This document shows, piece by piece, positions 39,009 to 46,752 of a stretch of DNA of 64,000 bases. The stretch is taken from NCBI GenBank assembly GCA_963696935.1, contig CAVOMB010000060.1, positions 1,704-65,703 on the forward strand, read 5' to 3'. Position numbers and translations under genes: made by a program. The notes under the pieces were generated by a model. That model did no database searches. It was given only the letters and a program-made list of their open reading frames with translations, and was not told where the DNA came from. This DNA is from an uncultured Thermoleophilia bacterium (GTDB lineage: Bacteria; Actinomycetota; Thermoleophilia; UBA2241). The first letter of the stretch is position 1, and every line of letters begins with the position of its first letter.

Positions 39009-39296
39009 TCAGCGCGGCGATTGGAGCGCCAGGTCGAGCACCGTGACGCGCGGCGTGGTGACGCCGCCGTCGGCCCAGTCCAAGGCCTCCTCGAGCTCGA
39101 GCGACCCGGCGAAGTCGCGCGCGTCCTCCACGGTGTCCCACTCGAGCACGACGATGACGTTGCCGGGGTCGTCGGCGACGCGGTACACGACCCCGCCTCT
39201 GGAGCCGAGCTCCTCGCGGCGCACGGCGTCGTCCAGGAAGACCTGCTTGAACTTCTCGAAGTCACCGACGCGGTGCTCGATGAGGACGAAGGCCAT
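39009..39296 (-). CDS. Small ABM/cyclase-like dimeric barrel protein
   Basis: VLIEHRVGDFEKFKQVF..VYRVADDPGNVIVVLEWDT..ARDF. Confidence 0.75.
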   Translation of the reverse strand: MAFVLIEHRVGDFEKFKQVFLDDAVRREELGSRGGVVYRVADDPGNVIVVLEWDTVEDARDFAGSLELEEALDWADGGVTTPRVTVLDLALQSPR

Positions 39297-39386
39297 ACGA
39301 GCCCCTTTCATCGTGTGCGCGAGAGTGTACGCCCGAAGCGGTGCTTTTCAAGGTGCCCATCGTGGCGCGGGCCGCGCACACCGCCG

Positions 39387-41417
39387 TCAGCCGAGGTCGC
39401 GCCGCCAGTCCCACTCCGGCGCGATGACGTCGGTGCCGTCCTGGTCCTCGATGCTGCGGCGCCACGCCACGCGCCTGCCCACGCGGGCGCGCAGGCGCCA
39501 GCCCACCGGCTTCTCCTCCGCCTCGATGGCCTCGCCGATCGCCCTGAGGCGGCGACGCACGCGCGCGCGCTCCTCCTCGTCCAGCTCGAAGTCGTCCAGG
39601 AGCGCGAGGACCTTGCCGATGTTGGCCAGCACGTCCTCGTGCAGCCCCCAGTCGGCGGCACAGGTGGCGGCGATGCCGCGGACGTACAGGGAGTGCTCGT
39701 CGTCCGTCTCGCGCAAAGGAACATCCTTGACCAGGGCGATCACGTCGTGGGCGTCCTTGACGTTGAGGCGGCCGATCTGCAGCTTGCCGATGAACGCGTC
39801 AGCCGGAGAGATGGCGTAGTCGTCGATGAGCAGACGCTCGCGCACATCGAGGTCGTGGTCCATGCGCATGACGTCCAGGAAGACGTCGACGTGGTCGACG
39901 AGGACGTCCGCGCCGGCGCCCTCCAGCACCTGGGTCTTGACCCACTGGAGCTGGCCGGCCCCCGTGGCCTCCGTCACCAGACGGTTCTCGGCGTAGCCCA
40001 GGCGCTGGAACACGTCGTTGAGGCCGCGGTTCTGCACGGAGAGGCCGACGAGGTCGATGTCCGAGTACTCGCGGTCCATGAAGACGAGGTCCGTGCAGTA
40101 CCGGCGCACGGCCAGACCGCCCATGAGCCGCACTTGCACCCCGAAGCGGCGAGCCTCGTCGATGAGCGCCAGGGCCTCGGTCATGTGTCGTTCGGCGGGC
40201 TTCTCCGGCGGCTCCTCGACGTCGGTGGCCGACTTGAGCGGCGCTCCCATGGCCGCTGCCGCCGAGGTCACCCGCAGGTCCTCGAGAGGCGCCTGCATGG
40301 CGTCGAGGATCGGCCGCGCGATGTAGGCGCGCGGCCAGCGGCGCGCCGCCAGCTCCTCGAGCATGCCCCACTCCTGCAGCTCACGGACCGCCTTGCGCGC
40401 CGTGGCGTTGCTCACGCCGAGCGTGAGCTGCGCCTCGGGCACGGTGACGAACGGCGTGCGGAACAGGTCGTCCACCAGCTCGCGGGCGTGGCCGGAGACC
40501 TTCCACCGGTACTGCTCGCGCAGGGCCATGAGCGCGCGCGCCTGAGCCGACGCGCGCTCGGCGCTCTCACGGACCGCGTCGCAGAAGAACGCCAGCCACG
40601 GCTCCCAGGCGCCGTCGGTGCGCACCGCCTGAAGGCGCGCGTAGTACTCGTCGCGGTGCGCCTCGATGTAGGCGGACGGGTAGAGCAGCGGGTGTGACAG
40701 GCGACCGCGTTCGATGAGGAACAGCGCGATGAGCAGGCGGCCGAGGCGGCCGTTGCCCTCGAGGAACGGGTGGATGGCCTCGAAGCGCTCGTGCATCAGC
40801 GCGCACTGCACGAGCGGCGGCAGGCCGGTGCGCTCGCCGAGGAAGGCGTCCCACTCGGCGAGCGCCGCGTGCATCTCGGGCACCGGTGGGGGCACGTAGA
40901 CCGCCGTCTCCAAGGTCGAGCCCGGCGGTCCCACCCAGTTCTGGCCGGTGCGCAGCTCGCCCGGGGTCCAGGCGGCGTCGCGCACGCCGCGCAGCAGCCG
41001 CTCGTGCAGTTCCAGCACGAGCTTGGTGCCCAGCGGGACCTCCGCCAGCCGCTCGACGCCGTACTGCAGCGCGGCGACGTAGTTGCGCACCTCGCGCAGG
41101 TCCTCCCGGAGCTCGAGGTCGGGCGAAGCGGCGACCTCGTCGAACAGCAGGTCCACGAGTGTGGCCGGTGTGCCCTCGATGCGCGAGCTGAGCACGGCCT
41201 CCTGGCGCAGGAAGGGCGCGACGAGGATCTGCGGGTCGCGCCGCGCCCCGGCCAGACCGCTCAGCTCGCCGAGCGCCGCGTCCGCGGCGGAGAGGCGCTC
41301 CACGAGGTCCGTCGAGAACGAGAGCTCGGGCGGCAGCGGCGCCGGCACGAACGCCAGGCCGCCCTCGGCAGGCATCAGGCGCCCGCTCGCCCGCTCGGTG
41401 AATGTGGCCGGGTCCAC
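39387..41417 (-). CDS. Fic-family protein fused to a C-terminal nucleotidyltransferase-like domain (copy 2)
   Basis: SSRIEG inhibitory helix, HPFLEGNGRLGR, HTH, then RLMGGLAV..SDIDL..HVDVF. Confidence 0.9.
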   Translation of the reverse strand: MDPATFTERASGRLMPAEGGLAFVPAPLPPELSFSTDLVERLSAADAALGELSGLAGARRDPQILVAPFLRQEAVLSSRIEGTPATLVDLLFDEVAASPDLELREDLREVRNYVAALQYGVERLAEVPLGTKLVLELHERLLRGVRDAAWTPGELRTGQNWVGPPGSTLETAVYVPPPVPEMHAALAEWDAFLGERTGLPPLVQCALMHERFEAIHPFLEGNGRLGRLLIALFLIERGRLSHPLLYPSAYIEAHRDEYYARLQAVRTDGAWEPWLAFFCDAVRESAERASAQARALMALREQYRWKVSGHARELVDDLFRTPFVTVPEAQLTLGVSNATARKAVRELQEWGMLEELAARRWPRAYIARPILDAMQAPLEDLRVTSAAAAMGAPLKSATDVEEPPEKPAERHMTEALALIDEARRFGVQVRLMGGLAVRRYCTDLVFMDREYSDIDLVGLSVQNRGLNDVFQRLGYAENRLVTEATGAGQLQWVKTQVLEGAGADVLVDHVDVFLDVMRMDHDLDVRERLLIDDYAISPADAFIGKLQIGRLNVKDAHDVIALVKDVPLRETDDEHSLYVRGIAATCAADWGLHEDVLANIGKVLALLDDFELDEEERARVRRRLRAIGEAIEAEEKPVGWRLRARVGRRVAWRRSIEDQDGTDVIAPEWDWRRDLG

Positions 41418-41429
41418 GTCCGGCGTGCC

Positions 41430-42440
41430 CTACTGCGCCGGCCGGCGCCCGCCGGCGAACTCGCTGCGGTAGGGCTCCGTGGACAGCGACACGGTGCTCA
41501 CGGAGCTCCCGGTGCTGGGCGCGTGCATCATCTTGCCGGCGCCGACGGAGAGCCCGACGTGGTGGATCGCGCCGGCGGCGTTGCGGAAGAAGACGAGGTC
41601 GCCGGCGCGCAGCGCGCCGCGCGTGGCGACCCGCGTGCCCACCTTCGCCTGGTCGGACGCGTCCCGCGGGATGGTGACGCCGCAGGCCCTGTAGACGAGC
41701 TCGGTGAACCCGGAGCAATCGACGCCGAAGCCGGAGGTGCCGGCCCACAGGTACCCGAGGCCGGCGAAGGCGCGCGCCTGCTTCACGAGCTGCGCGCCGG
41801 TCGGCCGCGGCCAGGCCGTGCCGGTGTCGTGCAGGAGGACGCCGGCGCGCCGCACGTAGGCGTGCGCGCCGTCGAGCAGCAGCACCTCGACGGCCTGGTC
41901 GGAGGAGGACACCACCGGGAGGCGCGTGCCGCACGAGACCTCGAGCACGCGCCCGGTCAGCTCCTGAGTCTCGTAGAGCCACATCGTGGGCCACCTGACG
42001 AGCGCCACCGACTCTGCCGCCTGAGGCTTCACCGCGGTGAGCTGCCGCGTGGGCACCCAGCCGGGGTAGCCCCACCTGTTCCTCGGTGTGGGCTGGCCGG
42101 CCGCGGCGATGTGCGACCAGCCTCCAGACGTGCCCAGCAGGGAGACCTTGGCGCCGTACAGCGCTTGCGTCTCGAGCCTGCCGACCAGCCCGCGCTTCTG
42201 GGTGACGCTCATGCCGCGGACCCAGGCGCGCGGGTCGGCCGGATAGGCGACGGCGGGCGCGTCCACGGCGCGCGTCTCACCCGGCCGCACCCACAGGGTG
42301 GCCACCGAGACGCGCACCCAGCGCGCCGGCGGGCGGGCGGCCTCGTGGGCGGAGGTCGCGCCGGCGGCGTGCGCCTGCGGCGCCCCCGCGAGCGCGGCCA
42401 CGGCGGCGAGCAGACCGAGGGCCGCCAGGGCGGCCCGCAT
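41430..42440 (-). CDS. Secreted NlpC/P60 peptidase (YkfC-like, SH3-type N-terminus)
   Basis: Signal peptide, ETQALYG, YLWAGTSGFGVDCSG, IPRDASDQ, HHVGL. Confidence 0.9.
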   Translation of the reverse strand: MRAALAALGLLAAVAALAGAPQAHAAGATSAHEAARPPARWVRVSVATLWVRPGETRAVDAPAVAYPADPRAWVRGMSVTQKRGLVGRLETQALYGAKVSLLGTSGGWSHIAAAGQPTPRNRWGYPGWVPTRQLTAVKPQAAESVALVRWPTMWLYETQELTGRVLEVSCGTRLPVVSSSDQAVEVLLLDGAHAYVRRAGVLLHDTGTAWPRPTGAQLVKQARAFAGLGYLWAGTSGFGVDCSGFTELVYRACGVTIPRDASDQAKVGTRVATRGALRAGDLVFFRNAAGAIHHVGLSVGAGKMMHAPSTGSSVSTVSLSTEPYRSEFAGGRRPAQ

Positions 42441-44413
42441 CAGCCCTTGAGGTGCCGGTCGAACCACTCGACCACCAGCTCGAAGCGCCAGACGCGGTGC
42501 AGCGGGCTGCCGGACCGTGTCAGCTCGTGGGACTCGGCCGGGAACCGCACGATCTCCACCGGCCGCTTCAGCAGCCGCAGCGTGGTGAAGAGGTGCTCGC
42601 CCTGCTCCACGGGGCAACGCAGGTCCTCCTCGGAGTGCAGGATGAGCAGCGGCGTGTGGATGTCCTCGGCGTAGGTCACCGGCGAGACCTTGCGGTACAG
42701 GTCCACGTCCTCGAAGAGGAACTTGTCGGTGTAGCCCTTGAAGTCCCAGCCGAAGTCGCTGGAGCCCCACTGCGAGTCGAAGTTGTTGACGGCGCGCTCG
42801 GAGACGGCGGCCTTGAAACGGTCGGTGTGGCCGACGATCCAGGAGGTCATGTAGCCGCCGTAGGAGCCGCCGATGACGCCGAGGCGGTCCGCGTCGACGA
42901 AGTCGAAGCGGCGGACCGCCTCGTCCACCACGGCCATGCAGTCCTCGTAGTCGACGGAGCCCCAGCCCGGGCCGCTCTCGCCGGGGCCGCGGATGGCGCG
43001 CGCCCAGTCCTCGGTGGAGCCGGACGAGCCGCGCGGGTTGCTGAAGACGACGGCGTAGCCGGCGCCGCAGTACACCTGGAACTCGTCGAAGAACACCTCG
43101 CCGTACTGGCCGTAGGGCCCGCCGTGGATGTTGAGGAGGGTGGGGTACTTCTTGCCCTCCTCGTAGCCGGCGGGCCGCATGATCCAGGCGTCGACGCCGC
43201 TGCCGTCGGGCGAGACGGCCGTGAACATCTCGGGCCTGACGAGCTCGCGGCCGGCGCTGAAGACGTCGCCGGCGTCCGTGAGACGCACGCCCGCGGAGGC
43301 CGGGTGCTCGACGGCCGCCGCCGGCCCGGCGTCGTAGAGCTCGCTCAGGTGGGTCGGGTCGCTCGCCGTGAACACCAGACGGCCGGCGGCGAGGTCGAGA
43401 CCGGTGACCTCGCGCTCGCCGCCCACCACCACGTGCGGCTCGCCGGAGCCGTCGGCCGCGACCGCGTAGATGTGCACGCGGCCGTGGTCCTCCACGACGA
43501 ACAGCAACTCACCGTCGTTCCACAGCGGCTCGCGCATGCCGGGGTACGTGGTGCAGTTGCGGTCGAGCGTGGCGGTGAGCAGCGTCAACTCCCCACTCTG
43601 CGCGTCGACGAGAGCGATCTTGGTGTGCCGCGGGTCGTCCCAGACGCCGGAGACCCGCTCGACCGCCAGGCGGCCGTCCGGCAGCCAGGCGACGCCGCCC
43701 ACGGCGCCGCCGCCCTGGGTGAGGCGCCGTGGCTCCGCGCCGGCGGCGTCCACCAGGTACACGTCGTTGACCAACTCGAGGTCCCAGTCGGGGTGACGGG
43801 CGGAGACGAACGCGATGGTGCGCCCGTCCGGAGACCAGCACGGCGAGTGGTCCTCGTAGTCGCCGTCGGTAAGCTGCAGGGGCTCCGCCGAGCCGTCGGC
43901 CGGCACGACGAAGACGTGCCGCGGCCTGCCGGCCGTCCAGCCCACGCTGTCGAGCTTGTACTGCAGGCGGGTCAGGCGCCGGGGACGGCGCTTCTTGTCG
44001 TCGTCTTCTTCGTAGGCCTCGTCGCGCACGCGCGCCACGAAGGCGATGCGCGTGCCGTCGGGCGACCACGCCGCCTGCGTCACGTCCTCCTTGAGCGAGG
44101 TGAGCTTGCGCGGCTCGCCACCGCCCACCGGCAGGACGTAGAGCTGCGACGCCTTATCGGCGCGGTTGGACGTGAACGCGAGCCGCGAGTCGTCCGGCGA
44201 CCAGCGCGGGTCGGCGTCGGACTTCTCCCCGCTCGTGAACTGGAGCGGCGGCTCCGACCCGCCGGCCGCCGCCAGCCAGATCGCCGAGCGGTACTCGTTG
44301 GCTTCCTCATCCACGCGGCCGACCACACAGGCCACCGTCTCGCCGTCGGGAGAGAGCCGCGGATCCGCGACCCCCGCGAGCTCGAACACGTCGTGCGGGA
44401 CCATGCCCGTCAT
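42440..44413 (-). CDS. S9 prolyl oligopeptidase / acylaminoacyl peptidase
   Basis: WD40/PD40-like WSPD repeats, IHGGP, GGSYGG nucleophile, DLRCP, ESHEL. Confidence 0.95.
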   Translation of the reverse strand: MTGMVPHDVFELAGVADPRLSPDGETVACVVGRVDEEANEYRSAIWLAAAGGSEPPLQFTSGEKSDADPRWSPDDSRLAFTSNRADKASQLYVLPVGGGEPRKLTSLKEDVTQAAWSPDGTRIAFVARVRDEAYEEDDDKKRRPRRLTRLQYKLDSVGWTAGRPRHVFVVPADGSAEPLQLTDGDYEDHSPCWSPDGRTIAFVSARHPDWDLELVNDVYLVDAAGAEPRRLTQGGGAVGGVAWLPDGRLAVERVSGVWDDPRHTKIALVDAQSGELTLLTATLDRNCTTYPGMREPLWNDGELLFVVEDHGRVHIYAVAADGSGEPHVVVGGEREVTGLDLAAGRLVFTASDPTHLSELYDAGPAAAVEHPASAGVRLTDAGDVFSAGRELVRPEMFTAVSPDGSGVDAWIMRPAGYEEGKKYPTLLNIHGGPYGQYGEVFFDEFQVYCGAGYAVVFSNPRGSSGSTEDWARAIRGPGESGPGWGSVDYEDCMAVVDEAVRRFDFVDADRLGVIGGSYGGYMTSWIVGHTDRFKAAVSERAVNNFDSQWGSSDFGWDFKGYTDKFLFEDVDLYRKVSPVTYAEDIHTPLLILHSEEDLRCPVEQGEHLFTTLRLLKRPVEIVRFPAESHELTRSGSPLHRVWRFELVVEWFDRHLKG

Positions 44414-44439
44414 GCCGCCCCCTTCCTCCCGGTCCTCTC

Positions 44440-46515
44440 TCAGCCCAGGTCGCGCCTGTAGTCCCACTCCGGCGCGATGATCTGCGTGCCCTCCGTATCT
44501 TCTATCTCACGCCGCCAGGCGACGCGCTCGCCCACTGTAGCGCGAAGGCGCCAGCGCAGGCTCTTGCCGGCGCTCTCCACCGACTCCTTGATGGCACCCA
44601 GACGAGCGTACACCCGGTCCTGCTGCCCTTCGGTCAGGCCGTAGTCGCCCACCATCGCGAGAGCGTTGTCGAGATTGGTCGTGATATCGCGGTACAGGCC
44701 CCAGTCGTGCGAGCAGACCTCGGCGATGTAGAGCAGGTCGATGGAGGTGTCGTCGTCGACGTCGCGCAGCGGCACGTCCTTGACCAGGGCGATGACGTCG
44801 TGGACGTCCTTCTGGTTGATCTTGCCGATCTGCATCTTGGCGATGAACGCGTCGGCCGGGGAGATCGCGTAGTCGTCGATCTCGAGCCGCCCGTGGACGT
44901 CGAGGTCGTGGTCCATACGCATGATGTCGAGGAAGATGTCGACGTGGTCGACGAGCGGCGGCTCGTAGGCGTGATGCACGCCCTGGGCCGCCGCCTCCGC
45001 CTCGGCCTTCATGCCCTCCAGCGCCTCGTTCTTGATGTACTGGAGCTGGCTGGAGCCGGTGGACTGGGTGACGTACCGGTTCTCGGTGTAGTCCAGGCTC
45101 TCGAAGACCGCGTGGATGTCCTTCTTCTGGTCGCCGAGGCCGACGTAGTCGATGTCGGAGTACTCGCGCTCCATGAAGTCCAGGTCGGTGCAGTAGCGGC
45201 GCACGGCGAGCCCGCCGGTGAGGCGCAGCTGCACGCCCATGGCGCGGGCCGCGTCGATGGTGTCCATGGCCTCCGCCATGAGGCGGTCGGCGCGGCGCGG
45301 GGCCCGCTGCACCTGCGCGGTCTCGCTCTTGACGGTGGTGTGGAGCGCGGCCGTGCCGGGGCCGCTGCGCAGGTCCTCCAGCGGGTGCAGAACGGCGTCC
45401 AGCACGTGCTTCGCGAGGTACACGCGCGGCCAGCGTTTCTCGGACCACTCCACGAGCAGGCCGCGGGCCTCGAGCTGGCGCACGGCGCTGCGCGCCGTGG
45501 GGTTGGCGACGTCGAGGATGCGCTGGGCCTCGGGCACCGTCATCGCCGGCGTGCGGAAGAGCTCGTCGGCGAGCCGCAGCGCGTGGCCCTTGACCCTCTC
45601 GCGGTCGCGCTCGTAGTGGCGGATGAGCGCGCGCGCCTGGCGGGTCGCGCGCTCGGCCGTGCCGTGCACGCCCTCACAGAAGAACGTCAGCCAGGGCGTC
45701 CACTCGTTGTGCGTGCGCACCCGCTGCAGCAGCGTGTAGTACTCGTCGCGGTGCCCCTCGAGGTAGGCCGAGATGTACAGCAGCGGCCGAGTGAGGCGCT
45801 GTCGCTCGATGAGGAACAGCGTGATGAGCAGCCGGCCCAGCCGGCCGTTGCCGCCGACGAACGGGTGGATGCTCTCGAACTGCGCGTGCAGCATCGCGCA
45901 CTGGATGAGGTCGGGCAGCTTGTCGCGCTCCTGCAGGAACTGCTCGAACGCAGCCAGCAGCTCCGGCAGCTGCTCCACCGGCGGCGGCACGTAGGTCGCC
46001 GTCGCCTGGGTGGCGCCGGGCGGGCCCAGCCAGTTCTGCGAGGCGCGGAACTCGCCCGGGGTGCGCGCGCCGCTGACGTCGTCGCGCAGCAGCTGCTCGT
46101 GCAGCTCCCTGATGAACTCCAGCGACAGCGGCTCCTGGCGCAGCTGCTCGACGCCGAAGCGAAGCGTCTGGATGCAGGAGCGCACCTCGCGCAGGTGGTC
46201 GCGCGGCACGCTGGGGCGCGCGGCGCCGACCTGGTCGAGGTACAGGTCGGAGAGGCTCACCTGGGCGCCCTCGATGCGCGACGAGCAGAGCGCCTCCTGG
46301 CGCTTGAACGACGCGTCGAGGATGGCCGGGTCCGGGAGCTCGCCACCGACGCCGGAGAGCTCTCCGAGCGCGGCGTCGGCCCGCGACAGCGCGAGCACCA
46401 GGTCCTTGGTGTACGAGATCTTCGGGGGGAGCGGCGCCGGCACGAACGCGGCGTAGCCCTCCGGGGAGCTCACGACCTTGCCGGCTCCGGGGGCGTGGAA
46501 CTCGCTTGGGTCCAT
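44440..46515 (-). CDS. Fic-family protein fused to a C-terminal nucleotidyltransferase-like domain (copy 1)
   Basis: SSRIEG, HPFVGGNGRLGR, HTH, RLTGGLAV..SDIDY..HVDIF. Confidence 0.9.
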   Translation of the reverse strand: MDPSEFHAPGAGKVVSSPEGYAAFVPAPLPPKISYTKDLVLALSRADAALGELSGVGGELPDPAILDASFKRQEALCSSRIEGAQVSLSDLYLDQVGAARPSVPRDHLREVRSCIQTLRFGVEQLRQEPLSLEFIRELHEQLLRDDVSGARTPGEFRASQNWLGPPGATQATATYVPPPVEQLPELLAAFEQFLQERDKLPDLIQCAMLHAQFESIHPFVGGNGRLGRLLITLFLIERQRLTRPLLYISAYLEGHRDEYYTLLQRVRTHNEWTPWLTFFCEGVHGTAERATRQARALIRHYERDRERVKGHALRLADELFRTPAMTVPEAQRILDVANPTARSAVRQLEARGLLVEWSEKRWPRVYLAKHVLDAVLHPLEDLRSGPGTAALHTTVKSETAQVQRAPRRADRLMAEAMDTIDAARAMGVQLRLTGGLAVRRYCTDLDFMEREYSDIDYVGLGDQKKDIHAVFESLDYTENRYVTQSTGSSQLQYIKNEALEGMKAEAEAAAQGVHHAYEPPLVDHVDIFLDIMRMDHDLDVHGRLEIDDYAISPADAFIAKMQIGKINQKDVHDVIALVKDVPLRDVDDDTSIDLLYIAEVCSHDWGLYRDITTNLDNALAMVGDYGLTEGQQDRVYARLGAIKESVESAGKSLRWRLRATVGERVAWRREIEDTEGTQIIAPEWDYRRDLG

Positions 46516-46611
46516 TCCGCCTGCCTCGTTTCGACGGGTGCTTGATCAGCGCTGTTGCGTTTTGAAAGCATACCCCATAAATGTTAGGAAATGGCGTAAC
46601 TCGTGCAAGGT

Positions 46612-46752
46612 TCAGGCGTCGTCGTCGTCCACCTCGTGCCGGTCGACGCTGCCCCCGCGCAACTCCACGATCTGCCGCCGCAGAGCCTGCTCGTCCGGGA
46701 ACTCGTCGTCCGCCGCCCGGTCTCGGTGCACCGGTTCGTCGAAGCCGCGCAT
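46612..46752 (-). CDS. Possible 46-aa acidic peptide
   Basis: Manual translation MRGFDEPVHRDRAADDEFPDEQALRRQIVELRGGSVDRHEVDDDDA; GC3-rich codons. Confidence 0.35.
   Translation of the reverse strand: MRGFDEPVHRDRAADDEFPDEQALRRQIVELRGGSVDRHEVDDDDA

Follow-up and report, generated by a model that had tools for sequence, protein, structure and literature searches.

Two paralogous proteins of an uncultured Thermoleophilia bacterium join a SoFic-type Fic module to a predicted Pol-beta nucleotidyltransferase domain in one chain

Two main enzyme folds are known that AMPylate proteins, that of Fic enzymes and that of Pol-beta nucleotidyltransferases (NTases). On the Fic side, the closest described systems are SoFic of Shewanella oneidensis (SO_4266; PDB entries 3eqx, 3zcn, 3zec and 9tc4) and E. 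coli Sofic, with an architecture of 360 residues, and the stand-alone Fic protein of M. marinum (7cb8, a CDP complex), which has 412 residues. SoFic deAMPylates within 20 min, whereas its AMPylation, which depends on the dimer and has EF-Tu as its target, takes more than 240 min; deAMPylation is catalysed by the inhibitory Glu, and D202 coordinates the Mg2+ needed for catalysis. SoFic is further described as binding its own promoter and as a validated defence gene that is toxic in E. coli, and PADLOC and DefenseFinder list a defence system under the name 'SoFic'. On the NTase side, the nearest described systems are the MenT and AbiEii proteins (DUF1814, PF08843), which pair with MenA or AbiEi and for which Dy et al. 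defined four DUF1814 motifs (PMC3985639); in MenT1, T39, two residues before D41, is a regulatory phospho-site, and modification switches MenT NTases off. Here we report that a stretch of 64,000 nucleotides from an uncultured soil bacterium of the Thermoleophilia (contig CAVOMB010000060.1 of assembly GCA_963696935.1, positions 1,704 to 65,703; hereafter the window, with a G+C content of ~70%) encodes two paralogous proteins, A and B, in which a SoFic-type Fic module with its winged helix-turn-helix (wHTH) is followed, in the same chain, by a predicted NTase domain.

The original prediction for this locus, made from the nucleotide letters and their translations, had proposed two paralogues of about 680 residues, each with an SSRIEG inhibitory helix, an HTH, a variable linker, a C-terminal domain with the pattern GGLAV..SDID..HVD and a near-identical tail, and these elements were indeed recovered. 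Both genes are open reading frames on the minus strand, A (676 residues, starting at a GTG codon) and B (691 residues), and the two proteins align end to end over 691 columns with 56% identity and 71% similarity (E = 0), their C-terminal domains being 61% identical to each other. No catalytic residue of either module varies across A and B, with the sole exception of the acidic residue of the Fic motif. The alignments and an AlphaFold2 (AF2) model show A and B to be real, conserved, single-chain proteins with two predicted enzyme modules, each of a kind already known: a Fic enzyme of the SoFic type and an NTase that resembles AbiEii and PF14907. The architecture had been put forward as undescribed, and our literature searches, which covered the architecture, PF14907 and Fic in combination with AbiEii or MenT, turned up no account of the fusion, its invariant tail or the A/B pair. 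The fused form is nevertheless common in metagenome databases, where it makes up at least 253 clusters at 90% identity, yet where these are named they are called only 'Fic family protein'; because of this annotation, which leaves the C-terminal domain unrecognised, the A/B fusion is sequenced but not described.

The assignment of the N-terminal part to class II Fic proteins is backed by Pfam, PADLOC, a PDB match and Foldseek. In both proteins the Pfam models Fic_N (77 bits for A and 59 for B) and Fic (61.9 and 70.6 bits, against a cut-off of 24) score above their cut-offs, and the PADLOC model for SoFic (PDLC03963), which has no curated cut-off, is matched end to end, over positions 8–358 of 361, with 349.5 bits for A and 340.7 bits for B. 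The NCBIfam equivalog model for SoFic (NF046030), by contrast, gives 163.6 and 148.1 bits, and since these scores are far under its cut-off of 550, A and B are classed by sequence as SoFic-like proteins and not as SoFic equivalogs. SoFic is also the best solved relative by sequence (E 1e-38, residues 25–358 of A), with the Fic motifs in register at only ~28% identity, and the M. marinum protein matches residues 33–375 (E 2e-32). The full-length AF2 model, furthermore, superposes on SoFic (3eqx) and on 7cb8 with template modelling (TM) scores of 0.74–0.76 in Foldseek, the best structural match of the N-terminal module being 7cb8 (E 3e-16, TM 0.75), which is likewise actinobacterial. The inhibitory motif of A, S77-S-R-I-E81-G82, fits the consensus (S/T)xxxE(G/N), aligns with SSEIEN of SoFic and is invariant in 40 sequences, and the HTH, at residues ~309–366, is represented by weak matches that align with the C-terminal domain of SoFic and is of the winged type. 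Because both the SoFic alignment and the model superposition span the module, residues 1–375 are predicted to form a whole class II SoFic-type Fic protein, which shares with SoFic the dimerisation helix at the N-terminus, the inhibitory helix, the Fic core and the C-terminal wHTH. SoFic, however, stops after the wHTH (~370 residues) and the M. marinum protein is a Fic–wHTH protein that lacks an NTase domain, whereas A and B run 300 residues further, into the NTase domain and a conserved tail.

The Fic motif itself had been called intact in both proteins, which holds for A and fails for B. In A, the motif H216-P-F-L-E220-G-N-G-R224-L-G-R227 (HPFLEGNGRLGR) fits the canonical HxFx(D/E)GNGRxxR. 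In B, the motif reads HPFVGGNGRLGR, with Gly in place of the Mg-binding Asp/Glu, that is, at the position equivalent to D202 of SoFic, and the same Gly is found in 29 of 29 rows of the B-type clade described below. Judged by sequence, B is still a Fic family member, because it reaches its Pfam Fic score despite the missing acidic ligand, and its active site is non-canonical.

The C-terminal domain alone gave nothing significant in Pfam, NCBIfam or PDB sequences, and its proposed Pol-beta NTase fold is supported instead by Foldseek of the AF2 model and by the motif set. The model of residues 405–676 of A has a predicted local distance difference test score (pLDDT) of 86.7 and a predicted TM score (pTM) of 0.86, and all of the 30 best PDB matches are Pol-beta NTases, with MenT1 on top (E 2e-4), MenT3/TglT within the top ten, and ANT(2'')-Ia, LnuA (TM 0.60 on the target), CCA-adding enzymes and Cid1 among the others; the scores of these matches are modest, but the matches are mutually consistent. 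The Pol-beta catalytic set, G433-G434, D453-I-D455 and D511, is invariant and occurs in the expected order of strands and helices in the model. Probable counterparts of all four MenT/AbiEii motifs can be read in the sequence: the hGG counterpart G433-G434 is followed by an 18-residue spacer and R449-E-Y451-S452-D453-I-D455, in which R449 stands four residues ahead of the first Asp, like R63 and D67 of AbiEii, and then come the third Asp D511, K545-LQI, with the Lys within a hydrophobic helix, and the +DxxD pentad K554-D555-A-H557-D558. All of these residues, and those of the pattern GGLAV..SDID..HVD, are invariant in 40 fusions, and the key ones are kept in the wider family. A hydroxyl residue, Y451, occupies the position of the MenT1 regulatory residue T39. 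The C-terminal module is therefore assigned, on motifs and model, as a Pol-beta NTase with an intact predicted catalytic set (hGG, R-x3-DxD, third Asp, Lys, +DxxD) of the AbiEii/MenT / NTP_transf_5 type.

The position of this domain among the curated families was addressed through its relatives. An exhaustive phmmer search returned 1311 representatives at E <= 0.001, mostly stand-alone proteins of 245–280 residues. Among 80 sampled members of the family, 41 match PF14907 NTP_transf_5 ('Uncharacterised nucleotidyltransferase') at E <= 0.01 (best E 2e-8), at scores below or near its gathering score of 31.2 bits, and a few match ANT(2'') or AbiEii, PF08843 being found at E < 0.01 in only 1 of the 80; some stand-alone sister proteins, in addition, carry a precomputed PF14907 match. 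The domains of A and B match neither PF14907 nor PF08843, even at E <= 10, so that PF14907, the nearest curated family by sequence, is linked to them only transitively, through their relatives. The NTase thus lies nearest to the PF14907 and DUF1814 branches and, by threshold, in no curated family. Four relatives show the NTase family fused to other partners, namely a peroxiredoxin (P0167), a phosphoribosyltransferase (P0170), a GntR-FCD regulator (P0262) and a MarR-type wHTH (P0250), and some of these may be gene-call fusions. Another, P0148, is a repeat protein of 1877 residues in which 31 separate stretches match NTase residues 179–215.

In a scan of 185,579 species genomes, the best 80 loci came nearly all from uncultured Thermoleophilia or Actinomycetota metagenome-assembled genomes (MAGs). 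Within the genus, the NTase domain was found in 21 of 24 other genomes, most of them with full-length fused frames, and no fused copy turned up in 16 genomes that belong to the same class but to other families. A maximum-likelihood tree of 46 full-length proteins resolved three clades, each with 100/100 support, which differ at position 5 of the Fic motif: clade A, with gene A, has Glu, clade B, with gene B, has Gly, and clade C has the variants GG, DS or GA. On seven contigs, an A gene lies 4–10 kb from a B gene; A was found only with B nearby, and B often occurs without A. In a sub-clade of clade C (L075, L076, L078 and L079), the Fic motif reads HPFVDSNGR, retaining the acidic residue but with Ser for the first Gly of GNG, and the C-terminal tail is a different one; this motif resembles the DANGR of AnkX. 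Copies in MAGs labelled Deltaproteobacteria or Gemmatimonadales (L013, L043 JBLMXT01, L050 CAWJMT01 and L068 CAVQTC01) nest within the Thermoleophilia clades and are probably mis-binned or mislabelled contigs.

These conservation data also dispose of the reading that A and B are an artefact, either a fusion of adjacent genes created by gene calling or assembly, or a decaying pair of pseudogenes. Some relatives do have split or frameshifted copies (a 293-residue frame in G009, and pieces in G002 and G022), but unbroken frames of 676–705 residues recur in dozens of independent MAGs and in three clades under strong purifying selection, and A and B are both intact here; the conservation refutes the artefact reading, to which we accord a negligible probability.

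The two modules are joined by a linker of ~25 residues, variable in the alignment as had been foreseen, whose residues 382–402 are predicted to be disordered in the full-length AF2 model (pLDDT 26–38). The exception to its variability is K395-S/T396, which is kept in all three clades. The chain ends in the tail IAPEWD[WY]RRDLG (IAPEWDYRRDLG in B), which is fixed in 69 copies with 51 DNA versions and synonymous changes at 10 of 12 codons. Because so many DNA versions encode a fixed tail, the constraint on it acts at the protein level. In the monomer model, residues 660–676 are undocked and have a pLDDT below 50. Stand-alone NTase relatives lack the tail, and the clade C fusions end differently, in ..T-P-V-V-x-P-P-E.

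Given the sequence-profile matches, the NTase could instead be an enzyme of small molecules, an antibiotic or a metabolite, of the ANT(2'')/Lnu type, with the Fic–wHTH part serving only as a sensor or transcriptional regulator. When the family profile was compared with the PDB, ANT(2'')-Ia (E 0.013) and LnuA, aligned at hGG and DxD, were indeed the only matches, and the Pfam model Aminoglyc_resit has sub-threshold matches among the domain family; binding of SoFic to its own promoter and the fusion of NTase relatives to GntR or MarR regulators would fit such a role. However, the profile matches span only the universal hGG..DxD core, of ~65 residues, whereas the Arg four residues before DxD and the +DxxD pentad are DUF1814-specific features according to Dy et al. 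(PMC3985639), and the invariant tail and the conserved Ser/Thr of the linker suggest regulation at the protein level. We regard a small-molecule enzyme as quite improbable.

The same genome encodes, on another contig, a stand-alone NTase paralogue (G000:C36:41138-41917; L003:1426-2343, plus strand) of 305 residues, which is 51% identical and has no tail. It lies in a conserved, syntenic neighbourhood (GH18 ... hemerythrin ... ABC-F ... HhH-GPD), and no partner or antitoxin gene adjoins it. A canonical AbiEii is encoded at yet another locus of this genome (G000:C27:28195-28896, minus strand; PF08843, 120 bits), and canonical AbiEii genes are patchy among its relatives, being present in 9 of 25 of these genomes and at other loci than the fusions.

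In the window, B is the first gene of one tight operon with the order B, S9 peptidase, NlpC/P60 peptidase, A (Table 1). The S9 gene starts 26 nt past the B stop, behind the strong Shine–Dalgarno sequence GGGAGGAAGGGGG, its stop overlaps the start of the NlpC/P60 gene in TGATG (42438-42442), which suggests translational coupling of the two, and A starts 12 nt past the NlpC/P60 stop. Upstream of B, an AT-rich stretch (46530-46620), conspicuous in a genome of 70% G+C, may, by its composition, contain the promoter of the operon or an operator to which the wHTH would bind; scoring for sigma-70 sites gave no consensus site in it. Further out lie genes for MTHFR, CbiZ, a CMD-family protein, a polysaccharide deacetylase and a transketolase, and their order is repeated in two other MAGs, the order of B and S9 being found in L006 and L007; distant clade B genes stand alone amid unrelated housekeeping genes. 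A general functional link of the fusions to the S9 and NlpC/P60 peptidases was considered and rejected, as distant clade B genes lack both and L006 has genes between S9 and A. A conserved frame of 100 residues (39009-39311, minus strand) lies 75 nt downstream of A, with its own promoter-like site at 39351-39324 and no Pfam match, and its homologues follow the clade A genes in L006 and L007 and not the clade B genes. It was rejected as an AS1-like antitoxin, since it is not conserved beside clade B genes and has that promoter-like site of its own.

Table 1. Positions in the window of the fusion genes A and B, their modules and the other features of the operon
Feature	Coordinates	Strand	Evidence
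Gene A, 676-residue Fic–wHTH–NTase fusion, clade A	39387..41417	-	Open reading frame, translation, Pfam, PADLOC, PDB, tree
A residues 1-375, SoFic-type module (predicted)	40293..41417	-	Pfam, alignment, AF2, PDB match, Foldseek
A residues 376-404, linker	40206..40292	-	pLDDT 26-38, alignment
A residues 405-660, NTase domain (predicted)	39438..40205	-	AF2, Foldseek, profile matches, PF14907 relatives, motifs
A residues 661-676 and stop, tail G-T-D-V-IAPEWDWRRDLG	39387..39437	-	Alignment, AF2, codon comparison
Gene B, 691-residue Fic–wHTH–NTase fusion, clade B	44440..46515	-	Open reading frame, translation, Pfam, PADLOC, tree
B residues 1-376, dimerisation and inhibitory helices (SSRIEG), Fic core and wHTH (predicted)	45388..46515	-	Pfam, NCBIfam, PADLOC, alignment
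B residues 406-691, Pol-beta-fold NTase domain (predicted) and invariant tail	44443..45300	-	Identity to A, invariant motif residues
NlpC/P60 peptidase with two SH3 domains and signal-peptide-like N-terminus	41430..42440	-	Pfam, boundaries
S9 (prolyl-oligopeptidase family) peptidase with PD40 propeller repeats	42440..44413	-	Pfam, boundaries
AT-rich leader/promoter-like region upstream of B	46516..46625	-	Base composition only

This context bears on the reading that the fusions act in anti-phage abortive infection, in which a SoFic-type defence protein joined to a MenT/AbiEii-like effector would block translation twice, by AMPylation of EF-Tu and by nucleotidylation of the tRNA 3' end. The end-to-end PADLOC matches, the validated defence function and toxicity in E. 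coli described for SoFic, the MenT toxins as best fold matches of the C-terminal domain and the AbiEii-type motifs would all be expected from such a module. The fusions, however, are near-universal in the genus and occupy a conserved syntenic spot amid MTHFR, CbiZ, CMD, transketolase and peptidase genes, in a chromosomal, core-like context unlike the defence island of the SoFic system, and no defence or mobile genes lie nearby. Neither a conserved AS1-like small downstream antitoxin, as in the SoFic system, nor an adjoining antitoxin gene, as in the MenT/AbiEii pairs, accompanies A and B, the NTase being fused to Fic instead; no conserved small or COG5340-type partner was found in the neighbourhoods of the fusions in L006 and L007 or of distant clade B genes, and the stand-alone paralogue, too, has no antitoxin neighbour. 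The NTase domain is also all but missing from mobile elements: it was found in none of 50,697 phage records and in only 1 of 72,556 plasmids. The canonical AbiEii genes, in contrast, show the patchy distribution that is usual for defence genes. The fusion genes are thus part of the chromosome and are passed on vertically within a single uncultured lineage of Thermoleophilia, and they behave as lineage-specific chromosomal genes rather than as a mobile defence or toxin–antitoxin cassette; because of the housekeeping neighbours, the conserved synteny, the lack of a partner gene, and the absence of the domain from phages and near-absence from plasmids, a mobile defence or toxin module is disfavoured, and we consider the abortive-infection reading unlikely.

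Our proposal, which we hold tentatively and at somewhat less than an even chance, is that each fusion is a self-contained nucleotidylation switch that would control growth or translation and whose two modules would act either on one another or on a common target. The switch model was arrived at because the kinetics of SoFic, the regulation of MenT1 at T39 and AMPylation by MNT proteins can be put together. In this proposal, the Fic module would behave like SoFic, as a fast deAMPylase and a slow, dimer-dependent AMPylase restrained by its inhibitory Glu, and the NTase tethered to it would contribute an opposing activity, or one that is controlled. The active-site hydroxyls of Y451 and S452, Ser396 of the linker and Thr662 of the tail are candidates for a modification that would be reversible. 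The two modules would regulate each other, or else add a mark to a single target and remove it again. B is probably a catalytically altered Fic partner, and A and B possibly form a heterodimer, because B lacks the Mg-binding acidic residue and A is seen only with B nearby.

Among Pol-beta NTases, GlnE and GlnD control a partner protein through the nucleotidylation of a Tyr, and GlnE holds opposing transferase and removase activities in one chain. A further precedent for a Pol-beta NTase that regulates its partner by Tyr nucleotidylation is the HEPN/MNT system, in which the MNT antitoxin MntA AMPylates its toxin HepT (PMC7641770). Both systems are functional analogies to A and B only, no sequence relationship closer than the superfamily having been found, and neither pairs a Fic domain with an NTase. 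The original prediction, too, had suggested a writer/eraser pair as one possibility, next to a stress or defence switch. A GlnE-like writer and eraser of a third-party protein would have the NTase nucleotidylate a hydroxyl and the Fic module, with its inhibitory Glu intact, remove the nucleotide. Such a division of labour would suit the fast deAMPylation and slow AMPylation of SoFic, the invariance in A and B of the Glu that deAMPylation needs, the existence of protein-AMPylating Pol-beta NTases such as MntA (PMC7641770) and the other fusions of the NTase family, to peroxiredoxin, phosphoribosyltransferase, GntR and MarR partners. But clade B lacks the metal ligand of the Fic site, so that both Fic reactions should suffer, and the NTases of most similar fold modify tRNA or antibiotics and not proteins, which leaves this reading doubtful.

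Several observations weigh against the self-contained switch as well. The NTase domain stays under the threshold of every curated family, its fold matches are weak (best E 2e-4, TM 0.4–0.6), and the Pfam AbiEii model misses the domain; a comparison by hhalign with seven AbiEii proteins of related genomes puts R-x3-DxD, the third Asp and K..+DxxD in register, with a probability of only 14% (E 0.002). RNA, proteins and small molecules are all conceivable substrates of the NTase. B-type Fic modules, lacking the metal ligand, may be inactive, which weakens models of Fic catalysis in the commonest clade, and EF-Tu is proposed as a target by extrapolation from a gammaproteobacterial protein with only ~28% identity. 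Finally, the full-length AF2 model, with an overall pTM of 0.55, has no confident contact between the modules and no docked tail, and because of this value we claim no inter-module geometry.

A more specific version of the self-contained switch, which we rate as speculative and unlikely in its full form, is that canonical A and metal-ligand-less B would pair as a heterodimer through the SoFic dimerisation helix, that the MenT-like NTase and the Fic domains would reversibly modify each other (at Y451/S452, Ser396 or Thr662) or a shared translation factor, and that the invariant tail would serve as a docking or pseudosubstrate element.

On the reading that we find likeliest, the A/B-type fusion would be a self-contained nucleotidylation switch of the chromosome and not a mobile module for defence; its mechanism is inferred by analogy. 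Automated defence finders will label A and B as 'SoFic' despite their behaviour as core chromosomal genes, and at present ~300 residues per protein, an entire predicted catalytic domain among them, go without annotation. As the two AMPylating folds share a conserved chain, and as a canonical form stands beside one that lacks the metal ligand, the pair offers a natural system for the balance between AMPylation and deAMPylation, and it bears on how MenT-like NTases may be restrained without an antitoxin. If the heterodimer model were true, A and B would provide an antitoxin-free, single-locus control of growth or dormancy in slow-growing soil Actinobacteria.

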